Shown here: piece after piece, positions 3,643-64,000 of the stretch
Layout: each line of letters starts with the position of its first letter
Numbering within the stretch: the stretch's first letter is position 1
DNA from: Podarcis filfolensis
Lineage: Eukaryota
Reading direction: 5' to 3' (one strand)
Assembly: GCA_964270895.1 (NCBI GenBank)
Contig: OZ185445.1
Length of the DNA: 64,000 nt
Program-made: the position numbers and the translations under genes
The notes under the pieces: model-generated
The model's input: the letters and a program-made list of their open reading frames with translations, nothing else
What the model was told of the DNA's origin: nothing
Database searches by the model: none

Positions 3643-4693
3643 CCTTAGTTGGATGATGATGTTTGAAGAGACTCCTTAGATTATCCCACACTGAAGTATA
3701 CACAGTAGTTTTGTGCGTCCGCATCTAATCTTGCTCCATGTCTGCATCTAATCTTGCATCGAGGAACTTTAAGCAAAGTTGCAATTTTAACTAGGCTATC
3801 CATATCCACTAGCTGTGTCCTTCCATCCTTAGTTTACCACTGTCTTTGAGTTCCTTTGAAATTCCCTTGTATTCTTCTGAAGGTCAGCTGATTCTCACTG
3901 CAACATGCCAAATGATAAGGGAAGGGCCCAAAGATGGGTGCTATACATAGAAAATATAGTTTCTATATCCAGATTGGAGGGGGGGAGGCGTGCAGTGAGA
4001 AATGAAAAACTGCAGTTTGAGCAACTAGGGGAGGATGAAACTTATTTACCTTGCCACTGTTCACATCAGTAAGTGGCCTAGAAGTCTGTGAAAGTCAAAA
4101 AATGGGAAAGCAAAGGCAGTAAGCAACAAACATCCCTGGTACGAGTTTCTTCCCTTTCCTAAACATAATAAATCTGCAAAGTGCCAATTTTATTTTCATT
4201 AAGGCATTTGTTCAACAGTGTTTGGAAGCTGGAGTCCTGATGTCCAAAAGAGCAATAATTTTCTCATAGCAGGGTATCTGGTGGATCCACACAGAACTTG
4301 CACAAGGATTTAATTTTGTGTTTCGGTCCTTTGGGTGTCATTTTCCAGCAACTCGCACCTGCTTGTTGAAGGCTAGCCTTCAGCACTCCCCTGTGAGGCT
4401 TATCTCAGGGAAAGAGAGATGCCTTAGCAATGCACAGTTCATCGTCTGAGATGCTGACACCCAGTTTTTATGAGACAGCATCCACTTTTTATGTGCAAGC
4501 CCCATGAGGGCTGAGCATCCCAAGGTGCCACCATCAAATTCCTAACAACTTTGAACATCCAGACACCTGTTCTTTCTTCCAGCTTTGCCAATGTCATTTT
4601 CTTTTGTAAGAGTTTAGGTCAGCGAGGCACACACAAATAGGTTCCCTTGCTTGCCAGACTCCAAACACCTCCACTGTTCTGCAAACAGTTTTG

Positions 4694-4731
4694 ACAATTG
4701 GTTTATTGTAAATTTACAATAAACCAATTGT
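4694..4731. repeat. Perfect 38-bp palindrome
   Basis: acaattggtttattgtaaa|tttacaataaaccaattgt; halves are exact reverse complements with no spacer. Confidence 0.97.
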
Positions 4732-5091
4732 AGATACTTAGTGCCAGCCTCCCATTGTTTTGTAATTGCTTGGTAAGAGCCAGTGATCCATGATAACTGA
4801 TCACGTGATTACTAAAGACGGCAATTTCATGCCAGCAGGCTGTCCAGTGTTAAATGCAACTATCAGGTGAATAATGTAGCAAATGACTGGGGTCGATTTT
4901 GCAACGTAGGAGCTTTCGCCAGGCTTTCTGTGTGGAATGTGGCGAATGTTATTCATGGGACTGTCTTTGAAGGACACAAGAATGAATTGAATTGCTAAGG
5001 ACTGTTGCTTGATTCATTTGACATATGAGCAAAAGCCCCGACTAAGGACTCTTTCATTAAATGAGAAATTAGCTTTGTGTACCTTTGTGTT

Positions 5092-5121
<30 letters not shown>
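5092..5121. repeat. (GCA)n/(CAA)n microsatellite
   Basis: Direct reading. Confidence 0.95.
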
Positions 5122-5122
<1 letters not shown>

Positions 5123-5903
5123 ACCCTAACATAACATTCAAAAGACTCGTGGAAAAGAAACACTGGCTGATCTTCTTTCTATTAGTCAAAACAAAAATAA
5201 CAAAACTAATATTTTTTAGTGTGCAAAAAGATTTATCAAATTATGCCATGCGCTTGCTTCTTCAGGATAATTAAATAGCGCAGACATCAAAATCTGGCGG
5301 GTGCTTTCCTAGCTAGCTGGTGGCAAAGCTAAACAGATGTTTGGATATCCATGGGTGGTTATGTAGGCTCCTCAACACTGATGAATTTTTAGTATCACTT
5401 TGCATTGACTAACAGAACACATATGTACAAGGAAAAGAGGACTTGAGAGGAGCAGTTTACTCTTCTTCAGTGTCCCCAGAGTGGTGTGAAGTGCCTTAAA
5501 TGTAAATGAGGGCTTGACATGCTGACTTCTGTGCAAATAATCAGGAAATTAGTTGAACACATTAGGTTTGGAGGCAGGTTCCTGCGAGTAGCACGCTGTG
5601 GCCACAGGGACAAGGTCAACAAAGGAGATCTCCTCTGAATCCACCTTTCCCATGCCCTCCCCTTCAAAATCGGCTCAGTAGAGTTGGGAAACCCTCTGGG
5701 ACAGCATGGGAGGGGGCACTGAGGGCTGCACAGAGAAGAAGAAATTGGGAAAAATTGTTTCATCCTGCTTTCTGCCAAGGAGAAATCCTTCACAGGATTG
5801 GAAACCTTTATGTGAATGGAAAGAGCACCTCTGCTTAGGATCTAAGCCATTAATGTTTCCAGGACTGGAATCAAAAGACCACTGAATCTGAATCTGTCAA
5901 TAG

Positions 5904-6269: not shown

Positions 6270-6800
6270 TCATTAGAAAGGGGCAACCAAACCAAAATGA
6301 TCAAGGGCAGGGGAAGGAGCAACTCCCCTATGGGGAAAGGTTACAAAATTTGGTGCTTTTTAGAGAAAAGGCATGTAAAGAAATTATAGAAATCCTTAAA
6401 ATGATGCCTAGTTTGGAGCAAGTGTGTGAAGTTTTTCTCCATCTCTCGTGGAATACAGGAACATCTAATGAAGCTGAATGTCGGGCAGACAAAAGAAAAT
6501 ACATTGTTAGACTGTGGAATTCATTCCCACCAGAGACAGTGATGGCCACCAACTTCCATGGCTTTAAAAGATGATTAGGCAAATTCATGGAGGACAAGCC
6601 TATCTGTGGTTACTATCCCCAATGTCTATATTATATATCTACTGTAGAAGTAGTAATGTTTCTGAATACCAGTTGTGGAAGCCACAGGAGGGGAGAGTCA
6701 GGCTGTGCTCAATTCCTGCTTGCGGGCTTTAGGCCACTGTGAGAACCGGATGCTGGTTTAGGTGGGCCTGATCCAGCAGAACTCTTCTCATGTTCTTACA
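6270..6800 (+). mobile_element. CR1 LINE 3' fragment (degenerate)
   Basis: gggcaaccaaa..atgatcaaggg..ggagcaactcccctatg..gaaagg..ttaggcaaattcatggaggacaag, then CR1-type 3' UTR ending ctgatccagcag..tatgttctta. Confidence 0.75.
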
Positions 6801-6921
6801 GCAGATGCCGGTGCACAAATATCATTTGTCATTAGAATGCTTCAAATAAATTGGCCTCTTAATGGTGAACTATCCCTGCCCTAGACAGGGTTTATTGCAT
6901 CAGTCAACACCTTCTTGGTTA

Positions 6922-7645
6922 AAACTTCCAGAGAGGTAGCTCAGCTGTCTTATTCGGCTGAAGCAAAAGCAGATATCTTGTAGCATTTTAAAGACTAACA
7001 AAATTCAGACAATCGTGAAGAGAGACAGTAGTTTTATATTCCACAAGGGTTGATTCATTTGACAGTGCTAGGGTGATTGTGCTATCACCAATTGCCGCTG
7101 TTGTGAATGGTCACTGTGATAATCTACTATATGTTTTGGAAAGTAGTTCGTTTGTGCACTATGCATTTTGACACGTCTTAAGATTGCATAACCTAAGTTT
7201 TCATGGTGGTTCCTGAGCAGGTTTGTGTCTATGATTTGCTAAAATTGGACACCATTATAAATTATGATGGTGGATTGAGCCTTCCCAGACTGCACTGATT
7301 TTAATCAAATCTTGCATAATGGTTCCTGAGATCATGGGCCAGTTTTTTTTGTCTGTGTTTGGATATAGTTGGATGTCATTTTGAATCAAGATAGTGAACT
7401 GAGCCTTTCAAAACTGCATTGATTTTAACTGCTGATTTGCGGGCTGCTAGTTTTACATACTTTTAATCTTTAATTGAATTGTCTTTGTCATCTTTAATTC
7501 CACTGTTTACATTTTGCACCCTTCCTTGCTCAGATAGCAAAACACAATTTGCAGCTCTTTTGAGAATAATTGAGAATAATATTTAATGCATTTGATGAGG
7601 TGGACTCTAGTCCACAAACGCTTATGCTATAATAAAATTGTTGCT
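6922..7645 (+). mobile_element. Penelope-like element relic (inverted 5' pLTR piece, decayed endonuclease-like segment, 3' pLTR)
   Basis: 6922-7005 resembles the antisense distal pLTR (gaggtagc..ttaaagactaacaaaatt). 7112-7141 reads HCDNLLYV and 7241-7256 reads KLDTI, reminiscent of GIY-YIG ends. 7586-7643 carries the pLTR hammerhead motif. Confidence 0.65.
7586..7627 (+). ncRNA. Degenerate minimal hammerhead ribozyme motif (Penelope-type)
   Basis: tgca-t-tTGATGA-g-GTGGAC tcta GTCCAC-aaac-gcTTA-tgc. Helix II perfect; CUGAUGA is UUGAUGA and GAAAG is AAACG, so probably inactive. Confidence 0.65.
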
Positions 7646-8608
7646 TTCATGGGCTGCAAGACTTTATCATGGCAAAATATTTCACACTTCTCCCAGTGGG
7701 AGAGTGCAAGGAACTGTATACAGCAGCAGAGTTATGCATAGTGTGTACATTGGAAGTTTCCAAGCAACCATTTAGTAATGTATCATTAGAGTTTGAGAGA
7801 CCAAAGTGACAAATCTACTCAGCAAGTGTAGCAAGTAGGGAATCCTCATTTTTTAAAAGATACTATATTACCATGGTTTCCATTTAGTGTAGAAGCCTTT
7901 TAAACTTCTGATCAAATGCCAATCAATTACAGGCACCTATTCCCCCCCACCATGTGATATAGTTAGTGAACTAATTATCTAACAAGCATGATATGCTAAG
8001 GATTTTTTTTTATCAGTGAGCTTGTTTATTACTTTTACAGAGTACTGTAGTCCACTACATGTCTGCTCAAAAATGAATCCCATGGAGCCTGATAAGGCTT
8101 ACTCCCAGAAAGTGGGCATATAATTGAAGCCTTAGTGATTTTGGCATTTAAGCGGTATATAAATATCAATCAATCAGTAATTACATTGTTATGTGTTGGG
8201 TTGCATTTTGAACTCTTTTATAAAATAAAATAAAATTCCCATGAGTATAAATAAATAAATAAATGCAAAAGAATAAGAACTCTTGAGGTGGTGAATGTCA
8301 AACTTGAAGACATTTTCCCTTTGCTCTGCCAGGCGGATATTGAACTATCTGAAGCAGAAACTTTTAAATGTGAAAAGAGCTCAACTTAGACCTTTTCCAA
8401 GTTTGCTAGAATTCCTAGTTTTCTGCGGTAAAATGAATTACTATGACTAAGCCAACCATGTCTGAAATCTCATTTACACTACAACTTCTTCATATTGCTC
8501 TGGCTGGGAGAAAGAGGAGGATGAGTATAAAATGACTATACCCCATTTTTTAATGGTTTTATGTCTCTGAAGCTGTGTAAATTCTACTGGAGGCCTATGA
8601 CCCTGACA

Positions 8609-9063
8609 GTGCAATCCTGTGTATGTCCCCTTGGAATTAAAGCCTATCAATTTCGGTGGGACTTACTCCCCACTAATTATGGTGCTGGAGGAGACTCTTG
8701 AGACTCCCATGGACTGCAAGAAGATCAAACGTATCCATTCTTAAGGAAATCAGCCCGGAGTGCTCACTGGAAGGACAGATCGTGAAGCTGAGGCTCCAAT
8801 ACTTTGGCCACCTCATGAGAAGAGAAGACTCCCTGCAAAAGACCCTGATGTTGGGAAAGATTGAGGGCACAAGAAGAAGGGGACGACAGAGGACGAGATG
8901 GTTGGACAGTGTTCTCGAAGCTACAAACATGAGTCTGACCAAACTGCGGGAGGCAGTGGAAGACAGGAGTGCCTGGTGTGCTCTGGTCCATAGGGTCACA
9001 AAGAGTCGGACACGACTAAATGAATAAACAACAACAACAACAAGTATGTACAGGATTGCATCC
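8609..9063. mobile_element. Short palindromic MITE-like repeat (gcaatcct...aggattgc) split by Bov-B
   Basis: Left half 8609-8672 and right half 9044-9063 have inverted ends gcaatcctg / caggattgc. Confidence 0.6.
8675..9043 (+). mobile_element. Bov-B (RTE LINE) 3' fragment
   Basis: ORF reads PWTARRSNVSILKEISPECSLEGQIVKLRLQYFGHLMRREDSLQKTLMLGKIEGTRRRGRQRTRWLD; (AAC)n tail. Confidence 0.95.
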
Positions 9064-9683: not shown

Positions 9684-10496
9684 TGTCAGGGACTCAGGAG
9701 CAGGAGCTCTGGGGAGAGAGGAAATGGAGAGCGAAGGGGAAGAATCCGAGAGCAGCGTAGGGGAGTATGACAGTGGCCCGAGAGATTCCATGAGCTTCTC
9801 CAGCGAATCAGAAGATTCCCAGAAGGGGGCGCCTATGGTCAGGGCAAGGGGGGTCCCAGGGGGGACGCACCAGAAACAAGGAGACAGAGGGGAACCCCAA
9901 AGCAGCAGTGGGGGATTGGGACCAGTTTCCCCACCAGAGCGTAGTGGGGGGGAAGAGTCACATGTGTCAGAGCCAGCGTCTCCTCCAGCGGGGAGAGAGA
10001 GTGAGTCAGGGCTGACCACGCCTCCAACGGAGGGGAGGTCAGTTGCAGCTAGCCCCCCCAGAGGGGGAAGCAGTGACAGCAGCAGCAGTGAAACGGTCAG
10101 GAGGAAAGTTACCGGCTGGGCGCGCGTGCCAAGTTCAAAGGTACAGGCGCGGGGAACAGCAGGAGACCCGGATGCGGAACCAGCTCCTAAAGCCCGCCGG
10201 AGGGAGGGGGAAGGCTCAGGGGACTCAGCGTCAGAAGAGGCTAGAAAGGATGAGACCCCAACGGCCAGGCGCAACCAGAGGCGGAAGGAACTGAGGAAGA
10301 GGTGGAGTAAGGCTAGAATCTTAAATTGGTGTCAGGGGGGAGGAGACTCAGACGGAGCATCAGCGGTCTAACAGTTGAGACGTAGAGCTGCGCGCTGCGG
10401 CTCTGGAAGTGAAACTGAACTTCAATAAAGACTTTTGTACTTAACAAAGAAGCAGCGTTGGTCCTTTGTGAGCTGGGACCTTGGGCAGCCCTGACA
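9684..10496 (+). mobile_element. Solo LTR, 813 bp (Gypsy or ERV class not determined)
   Basis: TG..CA ends with 8-bp inverted termini tgtcaggg / ccctgaca; 5-bp TSD gcatg at 9679-9683 and 10497-10501; AATAAA at 10424-10429. Confidence 0.92.
9724..10371 (+). CDS. Putative LTR-encoded 215-aa acidic, Ser/Pro-rich disordered protein with basic C-terminus (function unknown)
   Basis: Frame open from the second base of the LTR to TAA 10369-10371 (228 codons); first ATG in gaaATGG context. No homology recognised and expression is unproven. Confidence 0.4.
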   Translation: MESEGEESESSVGEYDSGPRDSMSFSSESEDSQKGAPMVRARGVPGGTHQKQGDRGEPQSSSGGLGPVSPPERSGGEESHVSEPASPPAGRESESGLTTPPTEGRSVAASPPRGGSSDSSSSETVRRKVTGWARVPSSKVQARGTAGDPDAEPAPKARRREGEGSGDSASEEARKDETPTARRNQRRKELRKRWSKARILNWCQGGGDSDGASAV

Positions 10497-11030: not shown

Positions 11031-11558
11031 AAAAGCAATGACAAACCTAGACAGCATCTTAAAAAGTAGAGACATCACCTTGCCAACAAAGGTCTGTATA
11101 GTTAAAGCCATGGTTTTCCCAGTAGTGATGTATGGAAGTGAAAGCTGGACCATAAAGAAAGCTGATGGCCAAAGAATTGATGCTTTTGAATTCTGGTGCT
11201 GGAGGAGACTCTTGAGAGTCCCATGGACTGTAAGAAGATCAAACCTATCCATTCTTAAGGAAATCAGCCCGGAGTGCTCACTGGAAGGACAGATCATGAA
11301 GCTGAGGCTCCAATACTTTGGCCACCTCATGAGAAGAGAAGACTCCCTGGAAAAGACCCTGATGCAGGGAAAGATGGAGGGCACAAGAAGAAGGGGACGA
11401 CAGAGGACGAGATGGTTGGACAGTGTTTTCGAAGCTACAAACATGAGTTTGACCAAACTGCGGGAGGCAGTGGAAGACAGGAGTGCCTGGTGTGCTCTGG
11501 TCCATGGGGTCACGAAGAGTCAGACATGACTAAAAGACTAAACAACAACAACAACAAC
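11031..11558 (+). mobile_element. Bov-B (RTE LINE) 3' fragment
   Basis: Open 163-aa frame TNLDSILKSRDITLPTKVCIVKAMVFPVVMYGSESWTIKKA..; (AAC)n tail; 13-bp TSD aactgtatgagag. Confidence 0.97.
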
Positions 11559-19905: not shown

Positions 19906-20385
19906 TGTCAGGAGGCTGGCAGCGACTCCTGGCTGGTGGCCCAGAAAAGGAAAGATAAGGGAAAGATTCTTACCGTCCTTTTTTATTCAGTAATCACAGA
20001 GAGAACCCAGCCTCTTGGATAATGGCATTGTCCCAAGTGAACCTCCACCCCCGTCTCTCCCACTTCCTCATTCTTCATTTCTATGGGTGCTTCTACGTGC
20101 CCTCTGTCTTTGAGCTCTTTGCTCTCCTACTTTCAAGGCACGCCGGGTTCTAGGAAAGGGGGAGTCTTGAATGCTTTCTAGTGACATTGTGTCAGCCAGC
20201 TGTTGCTCTGGCTCTGTCTGCTCCTCCTCTCCCATTATTTCCCAACTTTCCCCCTCATCTGCCTCTGAGCTGCGGCCTCCCTCAAACCCCGTTGTAAATC
20301 TATATTGTCTTCCTCTTCCTCCTCCCTGGAAGGGCCAGGAGGATGAGACGGTCTCCACCTTTCCTCCACTGCCCAGTCCTTGACA
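19906..20385 (-). mobile_element. Solo LTR, 480 bp, with internal ORF
   Basis: Ends tgtcaagga / tcctgaca on the minus strand; AATAAA at 19982-19987; frame open from base 1 to TGA at 20068. TSD not clearly preserved (cctatg / cccata). Confidence 0.75.
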
Positions 20386-20398
20386 CCCATAGAAGTGA

Positions 20399-20722
20399 TG
20401 AGCCAGTGTGGTGTAGTGGTTAAGAGCGGTAGTCTTGCAATCTGGTGAACCGGGTTCATGTCTCCGCTCCTCCACATGCAGCTACTGGGTGACCTTGGGC
20501 CAGTCACACTTCTCTGAAGTCTCTCAGCCCCACTCACCTCACAGAGTGTTTGTTGTGGGGAAAGAAGGGAAAGGAGAATGTTAGCCGCTTTGAGACTCTT
20601 TAGGGTAGTGATAAAGCGGGATATCAAATCCAAACCCTTCCTCTTCCTCCTCCTCCTCCTCCTCCTCCTCTTCTTCTTCTTCTTCTTCTTCTTCTTCTTC
20701 TTCTTCTTCTTCTTCTTCTTCT
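20399..20722 (+). mobile_element. Squam3-type (MIR/Ther1-related) tRNA SINE with (CCT)n/(CTT)n tail
   Basis: gagccagtgtggtgtagtggttaagagcgg head, MIR-like core tgggtgaccttgggccagtcac, long pyrimidine tail 20637-20722. Confidence 0.85.
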
Positions 20723-22344: not shown

Positions 22345-23195
22345 GTTTTTTTTTTTAAAAAAATCTAAGCTTCTTCCTCTTCTTTTTTCCCCCACCCTCC
22401 CAAAGAGGAGAAAGAAAGAAGGAGGGTGATTGTTGGGTCAAGTTAGCCATATTGAAGCGTATGCTGTCGGTGGATCCTTGTTGTTGTCTTGTTGGGCTGT
22501 GTATGTGATAAAGGGGAGCCATACTGGAGTCTTCTTCTGTTTGTCCTCATGTCAGTTTCAGTTTACTGCTTAGCTTTTCTAATAAGGCTGTTTCCTATAC
22601 AATTTGATACCAGTGGTCCACGTTTACTCCTGACAGGTCTCTCTGGGGTCTGGCTATGATGCTTCTGACTGCTGAGAGTAGGTGGGTTATGAGCTCTTTA
22701 TACTGTGAGTGGGCATTATTATCTTGGAAGATGATGATGAAGAAGAAGAGTTCACTACCTGAAGAAGTTTCAAAGTGGCTAACATTCTCCTTTCCCTTCC
22801 TCCCCCACAACAAACACTCTGTGAGGTGAGTGGGGCTGAGAGACGTCAGAGAAGTGTGACTAGCCCAAGGTCACCCAGCAGCTGCATGTGGAGGAGCGGA
22901 GACACAAACCCGGTTCACCAGATTACGAGTCTACCGCTCTTAACCACTACACTACACTGGAAGATGTTCAGTAGGTCCAGTCTGGGGTTGACTTCTAATA
23001 TCTGTTTAGTTATTTTTCATATTTCTTGTATGACTGCTGTCCAGAAGAGTTGAATTTGGGGACATTTCCATCACATGTGGAGGTATATGCCTGTGGAAAT
23101 GCAGCCTCTCCAGCATTTTGGTGAGGTTCCTTGGCATATCAGTGCCAGTTTCCATGCTGTTAGGTACCATCTGCCAATGAGTCTTTTATTTTTGG
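22345..23195 (-). mobile_element. L1 LINE 3' fragment (ORF2 Cys/His knuckle and C-terminus), split by a SINE
   Basis: Minus translation RWYLTAWKLALICQGTSPKCWRGCISTGIYLHM*WKCPQIQLFW...LLNIFQDNN..; frame rejoins once the SINE and one TSD copy are removed. Confidence 0.85.
22734..22960 (-). mobile_element. Squam3-type SINE inserted in L1
   Basis: Reverse complement matches the 20399 copy; TSD tggaagatg at 22725-22733 and 22958-22966. Confidence 0.88.
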
Positions 23196-63177: not shown

Positions 63178-63646
63178 TGTTGTTGTTGTTGTTGTTTAGT
63201 CGTGACCGACTCTTCGTGACCCCATGGACCAGAGCACGCCAGGCACTTCTGTCTTCCACTGCCTCCCGCAGTTTGGTCAGACTCATGTTTGTAGCTTCGA
63301 GAACACTATCCAACCATCTCGTCCTCTGTCGTCCCCTTCTCCTTGTGCCCTCCATCTTTCCCAGCATCAGGGTCTTTTCCAGGGAGTCTTCTCTTCTCAT
63401 GAGGTGGCCAAAGTATTGGAGCCTCAGCTTCACGATCTGTCCTTCCAGTGAGCACTCAGGGCTGATTTCCTTAAGAATGGAGAGGTTGGATCTTCTTGCA
63501 GTCCATGGGACTCTCAAGAGTCTCCTCCAGCACCATAATTCAAAAGCATCAGTTTTTCGGCGATCAGCCTTCTTTATGGTCCAGCTCTCACTTCCATACA
63601 TCACTACTGGGAAAACCATGGCTTTAACTATACGGACCTTTGTTGG
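63178..63646 (-). mobile_element. Bov-B (RTE LINE) 3' fragment
   Basis: Open frame PTKVRIVKAMVFPVVMYGSESWTIKKADRRK..; (AAC)n tail; 10-bp TSD caatgggggt. Confidence 0.97.
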
Positions 63647-64000
63647 CAATGGGGGTAGGCTCACAATACTATCTCACATTATTATTGTCTGCCACAAACT
63701 GTCTAAGGAAGGGCTAAGGAACAAAATGTCAGAGTGAAGGCAGCATTTTTCTTTTCCTAGCACAGACGCTGATATTGACACTTTGATATTATAGCAATAA
63801 CATTATTGACTCATGTTTTTTTCGGATTGTATAGTGGAAGTTTTAAAAAATGCAGATCTTATGGACAAGATGACCTGTGTGTGTGTGTGTGTGTGTGCAC
63901 GCATACACACAAACTCTCATGGCTCTCTGCCAGTTGTGAATTGGCCTATAGTAGTTTAAAAAATTATACATGTTCACTGTTTGGGCCATTCAACACCGAT

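Follow-up and report, generated by a model that had tools for sequence, protein, structure and literature searches.

An old solo LTR in Podarcis filfolensis with the likely LTR-coded C-terminal tail of a chromovirus-type integrase

Introduction

As far as the available portions of the sources cited here describe them, Tf1/sushi elements carry a self-priming PBS (PMC6317226; 10.1101/2022.12.06.519325), and the LTR ends of Sushi follow the pattern TGTYANR..CNTNACA (PMC3601003, Table 3). The vertebrate V-clade chromoviruses include Amn-ichi of Anolis (PMC2774666). According to the same kind of partial sources, pol of the plant CRM group A reads into the 3′ LTR, where a conserved CR motif is found (PMC3059260, PMC3605345, PMC6317226), and acquisition of this motif is tied to loss of the chromodomain (PMC6317226). 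Read-through is also present in some Bingo elements of beet, the chromodomain of which lies upstream and for which the available text of the source describes no LTR-coded motif (PMC3605345).

In the present work, a window of 64,000 nucleotides of P. filfolensis (contig OZ185445.1, assembly GCA_964270895.1) was analyzed, and all coordinates without further specification refer to this window. It contains two LTRs with long reading frames, which had been described in an initial annotation made from the letters of the sequence. We consider it quite likely that the second of these, at 19906..20385, is a solo LTR from an element in which pol runs over the polypurine tract (PPT) into U3, and that the basic tip encoded there serves as a nuclear-import or chromatin-tethering signal.

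Results

The LTR at 19906..20385

The LTR at 19906..20385 is located on the minus strand, has a length of 480 bp, and bears the minus-strand ends TGTCAAG..CCTGACA. An AATAAA polyadenylation signal is present at 19982..19987 (minus strand). The initial annotation had listed a 480-bp minus-strand LTR, a 105-aa frame ending at TGA 20068, and a tail with AATAAA, all of which we found again. A search for further copies in the genome (1.5 Gb) yielded 2529 candidates at first look, and scores were calculated for 40 of them. All 40 match the LTR (80–100% identity), and the 39 copies other than the window copy itself are 80–84% identical to it, most of them near full length. For 30 copies, target duplications were scored in such a way that the ends could move a few bases; a 5-bp duplication was exact in 7 copies and had one mismatch in 4, at least two mismatches were present in 10, and clean TG..CA ends were missing in 9. 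The duplication flanking the window copy is degenerate (ATGGG / CATAG). From the copy identities and the target-duplication counts, we identify 19906..20385 as a genuine solo LTR of considerable age, which stems from a large Ty3/gypsy family of the chromovirus type (family 2). The window copy is a dead fossil. Also, DNA contigs from sequencing runs of four other organisms bridge the 19906 end and its flank, so the insertion is older than the split of these organisms.

Other repeats are present in the window as well. A copy of a very abundant SINE-like repeat (20403-20611) sits 17 bp from the 5′ end of the LTR and forms an inverted pair with a second copy at 22752-22960 (92% complementary). Three 95–96% identical copies of a young repeat with open frames of 150–195 codons, probably a LINE fragment, are located at 8675-9020, 11080-11534, and 63195-63649.

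Reading frame and frameshift of the window copy

Frame 1 of the window LTR is open for 105 codons up to the TGA at 20070-20068, and frame 2 begins with VKDW and is closed after 49 codons. In natural family-2 copies, frame +2 starts with a VRD-like triplet (27 of 30 copies). Open frames of at least 100 codons were detected among the 30 copies in frame +2 in nine cases, in frame +1 in one case, which is the window copy, and in frame +3 in none. A one-base register shift at 20290-20292 separates the window copy from all eight open natural copies compared, and the indel of 1 nt that had been guessed near 20285 was thereby confirmed. Because of this shift, the 105-codon frame of the window is a composite, of which the first ~32 residues are off-frame.

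The frame from LTR base 2 to the TGA at 20070-20068, which is interrupted in the window copy by the one-base frameshift near 20290, is the putative U3-encoded C-terminal tail of an integrase (20068..20384, minus strand). Part of an acidic stalk predicted to be disordered was assigned to 20206..20265 and a basic tip, composed of an SP cap and a predicted basic helix, to 20089..20163 (both minus strand). AlphaFold2 models of nine natural open copies consist of a low-confidence coil and a confident helix at residues 77-98. In the model of copy L020, the N-part of which has a net charge of −21, this helix block reaches pLDDT values of 80–91.

An open frame of 105 codons alone is weak evidence, since 130 of 5000 dinucleotide shuffles contained such a frame from the LTR start. 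This rate of 2.6% in purine-rich shuffles fits the explanation that read-through into the LTR is real and the tail inert, with conservation of U3 due to DNA motifs of the promoter or att site and the lack of stops due to its purine-rich composition. Judged on the substitution data given below, we regard this explanation as very improbable.

The peptides of both window LTRs had been reported to share a basic motif. The corresponding regular expression matched 1 of 5000 shuffles and had no match in 174 kb of flanking sequence in six frames, and both rates flatter the expression because it was derived from these two peptides. In its strict form it is retained in 10 of 30 family-2 copies, and a looser form, composed after viewing the copies, fits 26 of 30. 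What holds of the shared motif is its rarity in shuffles, for an expression fitted to the peptides, while the strict form is restricted to a third of the family-2 copies and to some families. A protein search with the family-2 alignment gave no match among longer proteins, and HMMER against 1.84 billion representatives returned six short unnamed ORF calls that resemble further LTR copies. The tails had no match in Pfam, PDB sequences, and the ESM Atlas, where blanks mean neither novelty nor absence.

Family 1 and its integrase frame

The first solo LTR of the window (9684..10496, plus strand; 813 bp) belongs to a young family (family 1), which Pol places in the same clade. It lies within a SINE and is flanked by a GCATG target duplication. 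Family-1 copies are 98–99% identical to 9684-10496, and exact 5-bp target duplications were found in 24 of 30 of them. Its putative U3-encoded integrase tail of 228 aa (9685..10371, plus strand) is open in 24 of 30 copies and is contiguous with integrase in locus L061 and in the UniRef entry A0A670KNJ5.

In L061, two family-1 LTRs with five mismatches between them delimit an element of 6,670 bp, which is accompanied by a 5-bp duplication. Pfam matches comprise Gag, protease, RT, RNase H, the integrase zinc finger, and SH3_Tf2-1 in the order Gag-PR-RT-RH-IN, and pol carries internal stops. The last stop-free frame of 633 aa leads from the integrase core over SH3 and a chromodomain-like segment to an acidic linker, crosses the PPT, and continues into the 228 LTR-coded residues, which are in LTR frame +2. 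The chromodomain-like segment is divergent and without a match to Pfam Chromo. After the 5′ LTR, a PBS is present, 11 nt of which are the exact complement to the LTR from position 667 onward. In the flanks of the element (L061 positions 64-711 and 6550-7701, plus strand), frames resemble by eye a tyrosine-recombinase (DIRS-like) gene, and the family-1 insertion appears, likewise by eye, to be nested in a DIRS-like element.

Young family-1 LTRs at 34 sites are spread along the contigs (10/5/5/8/6 by fifths, with sites on contigs C19 and C9 omitted). Any targeting by family 1 would therefore probably not be centromeric. Contigs from four sequencing runs, guessed to be RNA with DNA being possible, cover the family-1 integrase and LTR, with no listed piece spanning the junction, and no RNA datasets were listed as matching the window stretch. 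In a comparison of 9684-10496 with L120, synonymous divergence was 0.49 in the last 42 codons and 0.09 across the remaining tail, which hints at subfamily recombination near the U3/R border.

Internal sequence and self-priming of family 2

Based on the self-priming layout of family 1, the PBS of family 2 was predicted from its LTR and then located at four places, while a reversed-pattern control gave 0. At two of these places a family-2 LTR directly precedes the PBS, at the third (L067) the common downstream sequence with RT, RH, and IN remnants follows, and the fourth is unrelated. The self-primer site of the window copy (20027..20041, minus strand), the presumed start of R, is complementary in 15 of 15 bases to the stretch that directly follows the 5′ LTR in L069. 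From this complementarity, RNA of family 2 would start at ~20041-20037, downstream of the stop codon of the tail. By eye, a 469-codon frame on the minus strand of L070 (oriented 4017-5423), ~3 kb from a family-2 5′ LTR remnant, resembles the first exon of an androgen-type nuclear hormone receptor.

An intact family-2 element was not found in the genome, and L118 is the one clear 3′ junction. Here, integrase (41% identical to that of family 1), SH3_Tf2-1, and a chromodomain-like end are followed by the PPT and an LTR that is 78–82% identical to family 2, and the chromodomain end is in register with LTR frame +2. This copy has degenerated: its frame is broken within the chromodomain-like part, and the tail contains stops. 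By tblastn it aligns to the chromodomain, and Pfam gave no match for this domain. Evidence for Gag-PR-RT-RH-IN in family 2 consists of fragments only (RT/RH/IN remnants in L067 and IN-SH3 in L118), and a PPT-plus-LTR pattern search for this family gave one rearranged solo copy only.

Chromodomain elements of the genome

A chromodomain search of the genome gave 150 scored matches, and 92 loci were examined (the top 30, 60 hand-picked from the other 120, L118, and L061). Using a strict PPT-TG rule, which misses some real junctions, a junction was called in 60 of the 92 loci. Among these 60, an LTR frame open for at least 60 codons was found as frame +2 in 41, as frame +1 in 2, and as frame +3 in 7. 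For 35 of the 60 junctions, LTR frame +2 and the chromodomain share one register; the other 25 are out of register, which we attribute to presumed decay in G-runs. Unbroken read-through is present in 28 of the 60 junctions, and a long tail is found in 19 loci from 9 LTR groups. The layout before and after the junction is SH3, chromodomain, acidic linker, PPT, and then ~100–230 U3-coded residues in a frame that starts at LTR base 2. Four sister-family segments match PF00385 above cut-off. As read from the genomic DNA, the frame that encodes integrase and chromodomain continues as LTR frame +2 in elements with a self-priming layout.

Twenty-nine tails were compared, all of 90–130 codons except for that of family 1 with 228, which is counted among them; the loci are non-independent, several being of the same family. 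An acidic-then-basic polarity is found in 26 of the 29, [ST]P-x(1-4)-RR in 11, and C-W or N-W near the end in 12. In one family (L168, L171, L177, and L196), the tail terminates in SPELQRLRAERRRELVSPRRSARLKARR, whose RRSARL segment may recall the HMGN nucleosome-binding core. Tail tips may resemble CENP-C, HMGN, or SPKK motifs. A seemingly large share of the listed chromodomain-bearing internal copies lies on contig C19 (43 Mb), a pile-up that would suit a non-recombining (W-like) chromosome.

The two window LTRs had been called unrelated. This is correct on the DNA level, where blastn between them found no significant similarity (best E 0.57), and incorrect for the elements, the integrases of which are 41% identical and fall in one tree. 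In this tree of 33 integrase C-terminal segments, all from copies of this genome, the deepest split, which has a support of 100/98 under midpoint rooting, separates family 1 (a long branch) from family 2, and tails are present on both sides. Because of the integrase identity and the common tree, both LTR families are assigned by sequence to a single clade, made up of Ty3/gypsy elements that are self-priming and of the chromovirus type.

Podarcis muralis pol models in UniRef, of family 1 and of a sister family, already end in the LTR-coded tail. One example is A0A670KNJ5, an automatic model named "Gypsy retrotransposon integrase-like protein 1", in which the tail is unannotated and without Pfam family. 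An unnamed ENA protein with 43% identity to the query also ends in an LLCWKR-type tip, and a protein search with the chromodomain-plus-tail of another family gave no match.

Some retroviruses have accessory genes overlapping U3. A small gene of the LTR itself, which uses either a U3 ATG or a transcript that is spliced or starts internally, would enable solo LTRs to make the peptide. In-frame start codons suited to such a gene are present, since the ATG at 20235 would yield 55 aa with the basic tip and the PPT of family 1 contains an ATG at a distance of two codons from the LTR, and the tip is under selection as well. We nevertheless consider such a gene highly unlikely: no stop separates the frame from that of integrase, and it is unbroken in 28 of 60 junctions; transcription of a solo LTR would, by the inferred start site, begin only downstream of it; solo copies decay (21 of 30 without open frame +2); and in public proteins the tail forms the end of Pol. 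The initially suggested class of ORF-bearing LTRs was thereby not borne out as one with an LTR gene of its own, and the LTR frame is best read as an integrase tail continued across the PPT.

Selection on the tail

In the young sister family, dN/dS was 0.16 for the chromodomain, 0.30 for the linker, 0.73 for the N-part of the tail, and 0.19 for its last 42 codons (five subfamily representatives, 10 non-independent pairs). With other representatives, the last 42 codons again gave 0.19 (bootstrap 0.08–0.40) versus 0.63 (0.42–0.92) for the N-part. In shifted frames, dN/dS of this tail was 1.17 and 1.61, and changes in the last 42 codons were distributed as 48/35/107 over the codon positions of frame +2. 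For family 1, one pair gave 0.11 in the last 42 codons versus 0.66. For family 2, comparison with the single sister copy L156 gave 0.17–0.28 over the 26 motif codons on which the estimate is based and 0.26–0.49 upstream; against lineage L108, synonymous sites were saturated. Within family 2, shared non-CpG variants of the motif region fall 4/2/10 on the three codon positions (p = 0.024, one of six tests), the third-position excess over all sites has p = 0.36, and the length of shared indels is divisible by three for 3 of 5 within the frame versus 1 of 6 past the stop; the selection signal inside this family is weak. The motif residues, including the arginines, are encoded by different codons in different families. 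Taken together, dN/dS shows that the last ~40 codons of the tail are under purifying selection, and with the synonymous codon variation it supports the protein-level constraint across LTR families that had been proposed.

These data also bear on the inert tail introduced above. In its favor, the conserved codons are located just upstream of the inferred start site, the N-part of the tail is near neutral, and the start GTC AGG GA coincides with the integrase att site. DNA motifs would not lead us to expect changes concentrated at third positions of frame +2 (48/35/107), dN/dS values above 1 in the shifted frames, the same residues from different codons in families without DNA similarity, or the preference for frame +2 by 41 to 2 to 7. 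For the sister family, the inert tail is largely refuted.

Discussion

Proposed function of the tail

The analysis favors a C-terminal extension of integrase that would be translated only from genomic RNA of the full element, which includes the 3′ U3. Transcription of a solo LTR from its own promoter would, by the inferred start site (~20041-20037), begin downstream of this frame and not cover it; the frame would be silent and decay, as in the window copy, leaving a fossil. In the integrase, the long acidic stalk could keep the short basic helix off the catalytic core, and the helix could bind importin or nucleosomes/DNA beside the chromodomain. We incline slightly toward this role of a stalk that holds out a basic helix for importin or nucleosome/DNA binding.

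With the same architecture, the tail might instead act in the particle or intasome, on the element's own cDNA or RNA, by condensing nucleic acid or through regulation of integrase, with neither host chromatin nor import factors as its target. This alternative concerns the function step only and is, in our view, possible and clearly less probable than not. An SP-capped basic helix would suit nucleic-acid binding, and the 34 young family-1 sites are spread without obvious targeting. A long near-neutral acidic spacer followed by a conserved motif with a hydrophobic C-W (12 of 29 tails) would be more typical of a short linear motif that is recognized by a protein partner.

Tentatively, the tip of the tail could be a short motif for chromatin binding and thereby a second targeting module of lizard, perhaps of all vertebrate V-clade, chromoviruses, which arose independently of the CR motif and stands beside or replaces a degenerating chromodomain. 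In family 1, the chromodomain has diverged furthest, and the tail is longer than in the other families. If this were true, thousands of solo LTRs would scatter a basic nuclear motif through the genome that is open to exonization by host genes, and a P4-ATPase model hints at such an event. In this Podarcis muralis model of a phospholipid-transporting ATPase (UniRef A0A670JKR6), the last 47 aa correspond to the basic tip of the sister family (83% identity), either by exonization of a solo LTR or as an artefact of the gene model.

Significance

The tail architecture is not a new class of element. Rather, the U3 of these vertebrate LTRs would be dual-coding, combining promoter, att site, and the end of integrase, and a short motif would be kept in it by purifying selection across deeply split families. 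A comparable LTR-coded motif in plants is tied to centromere targeting, and the ~40 residues described here are a candidate for nuclear entry or site choice by vertebrate chromoviruses. An integrase tail also explains the coding look of lizard solo LTRs, which bears on gene annotation.

Comparison with known systems

The C-terminal region of Ty1 integrase is acidic and disordered. Like the signal proposed for the lizard tail, a basic import signal is located at the C-terminal end of Ty1 integrase (titles cited in PMC3605345). Ty1 belongs to the Ty1/copia superfamily and encodes its signal inside pol, not in the LTR.

By their build, the lizard elements are probably Tf1/sushi-type chromoviruses. 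They share with the Tf1/sushi V-clade elements Sushi-ichi and Amn-ichi of Anolis, as far as the available texts describe these, the Ty3/gypsy order, an integrase with SH3 and, in sister families, a chromodomain, the self-priming PBS, and the vertebrate host, and the ends of the window LTR fit the Sushi pattern TGTYANR..CNTNACA (PMC3601003). A U3-coded integrase extension of 100–230 residues with a selected basic tip is unmentioned in the available portions of these sources, and the original description of Amn-ichi (PMID 19118606) or Repbase may note it. In the literature covered, which leaves supplements, subscription papers, and Repbase outside its scope, no vertebrate description of such a tail was found.

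The closest precedent is plant CRM group A, in which the Pol frame likewise extends into the 3′ LTR and ends there in a conserved motif. In CRM, however, the CR motif replaces the chromodomain, priming is by tRNA-Met, and insertions are centromeric, whereas the lizard elements have retained a chromodomain ahead of the PPT (seen by Pfam in sister families), are self-priming, and are dispersed. The lizard elements are thus CRM-like in layout and not members of CRM.
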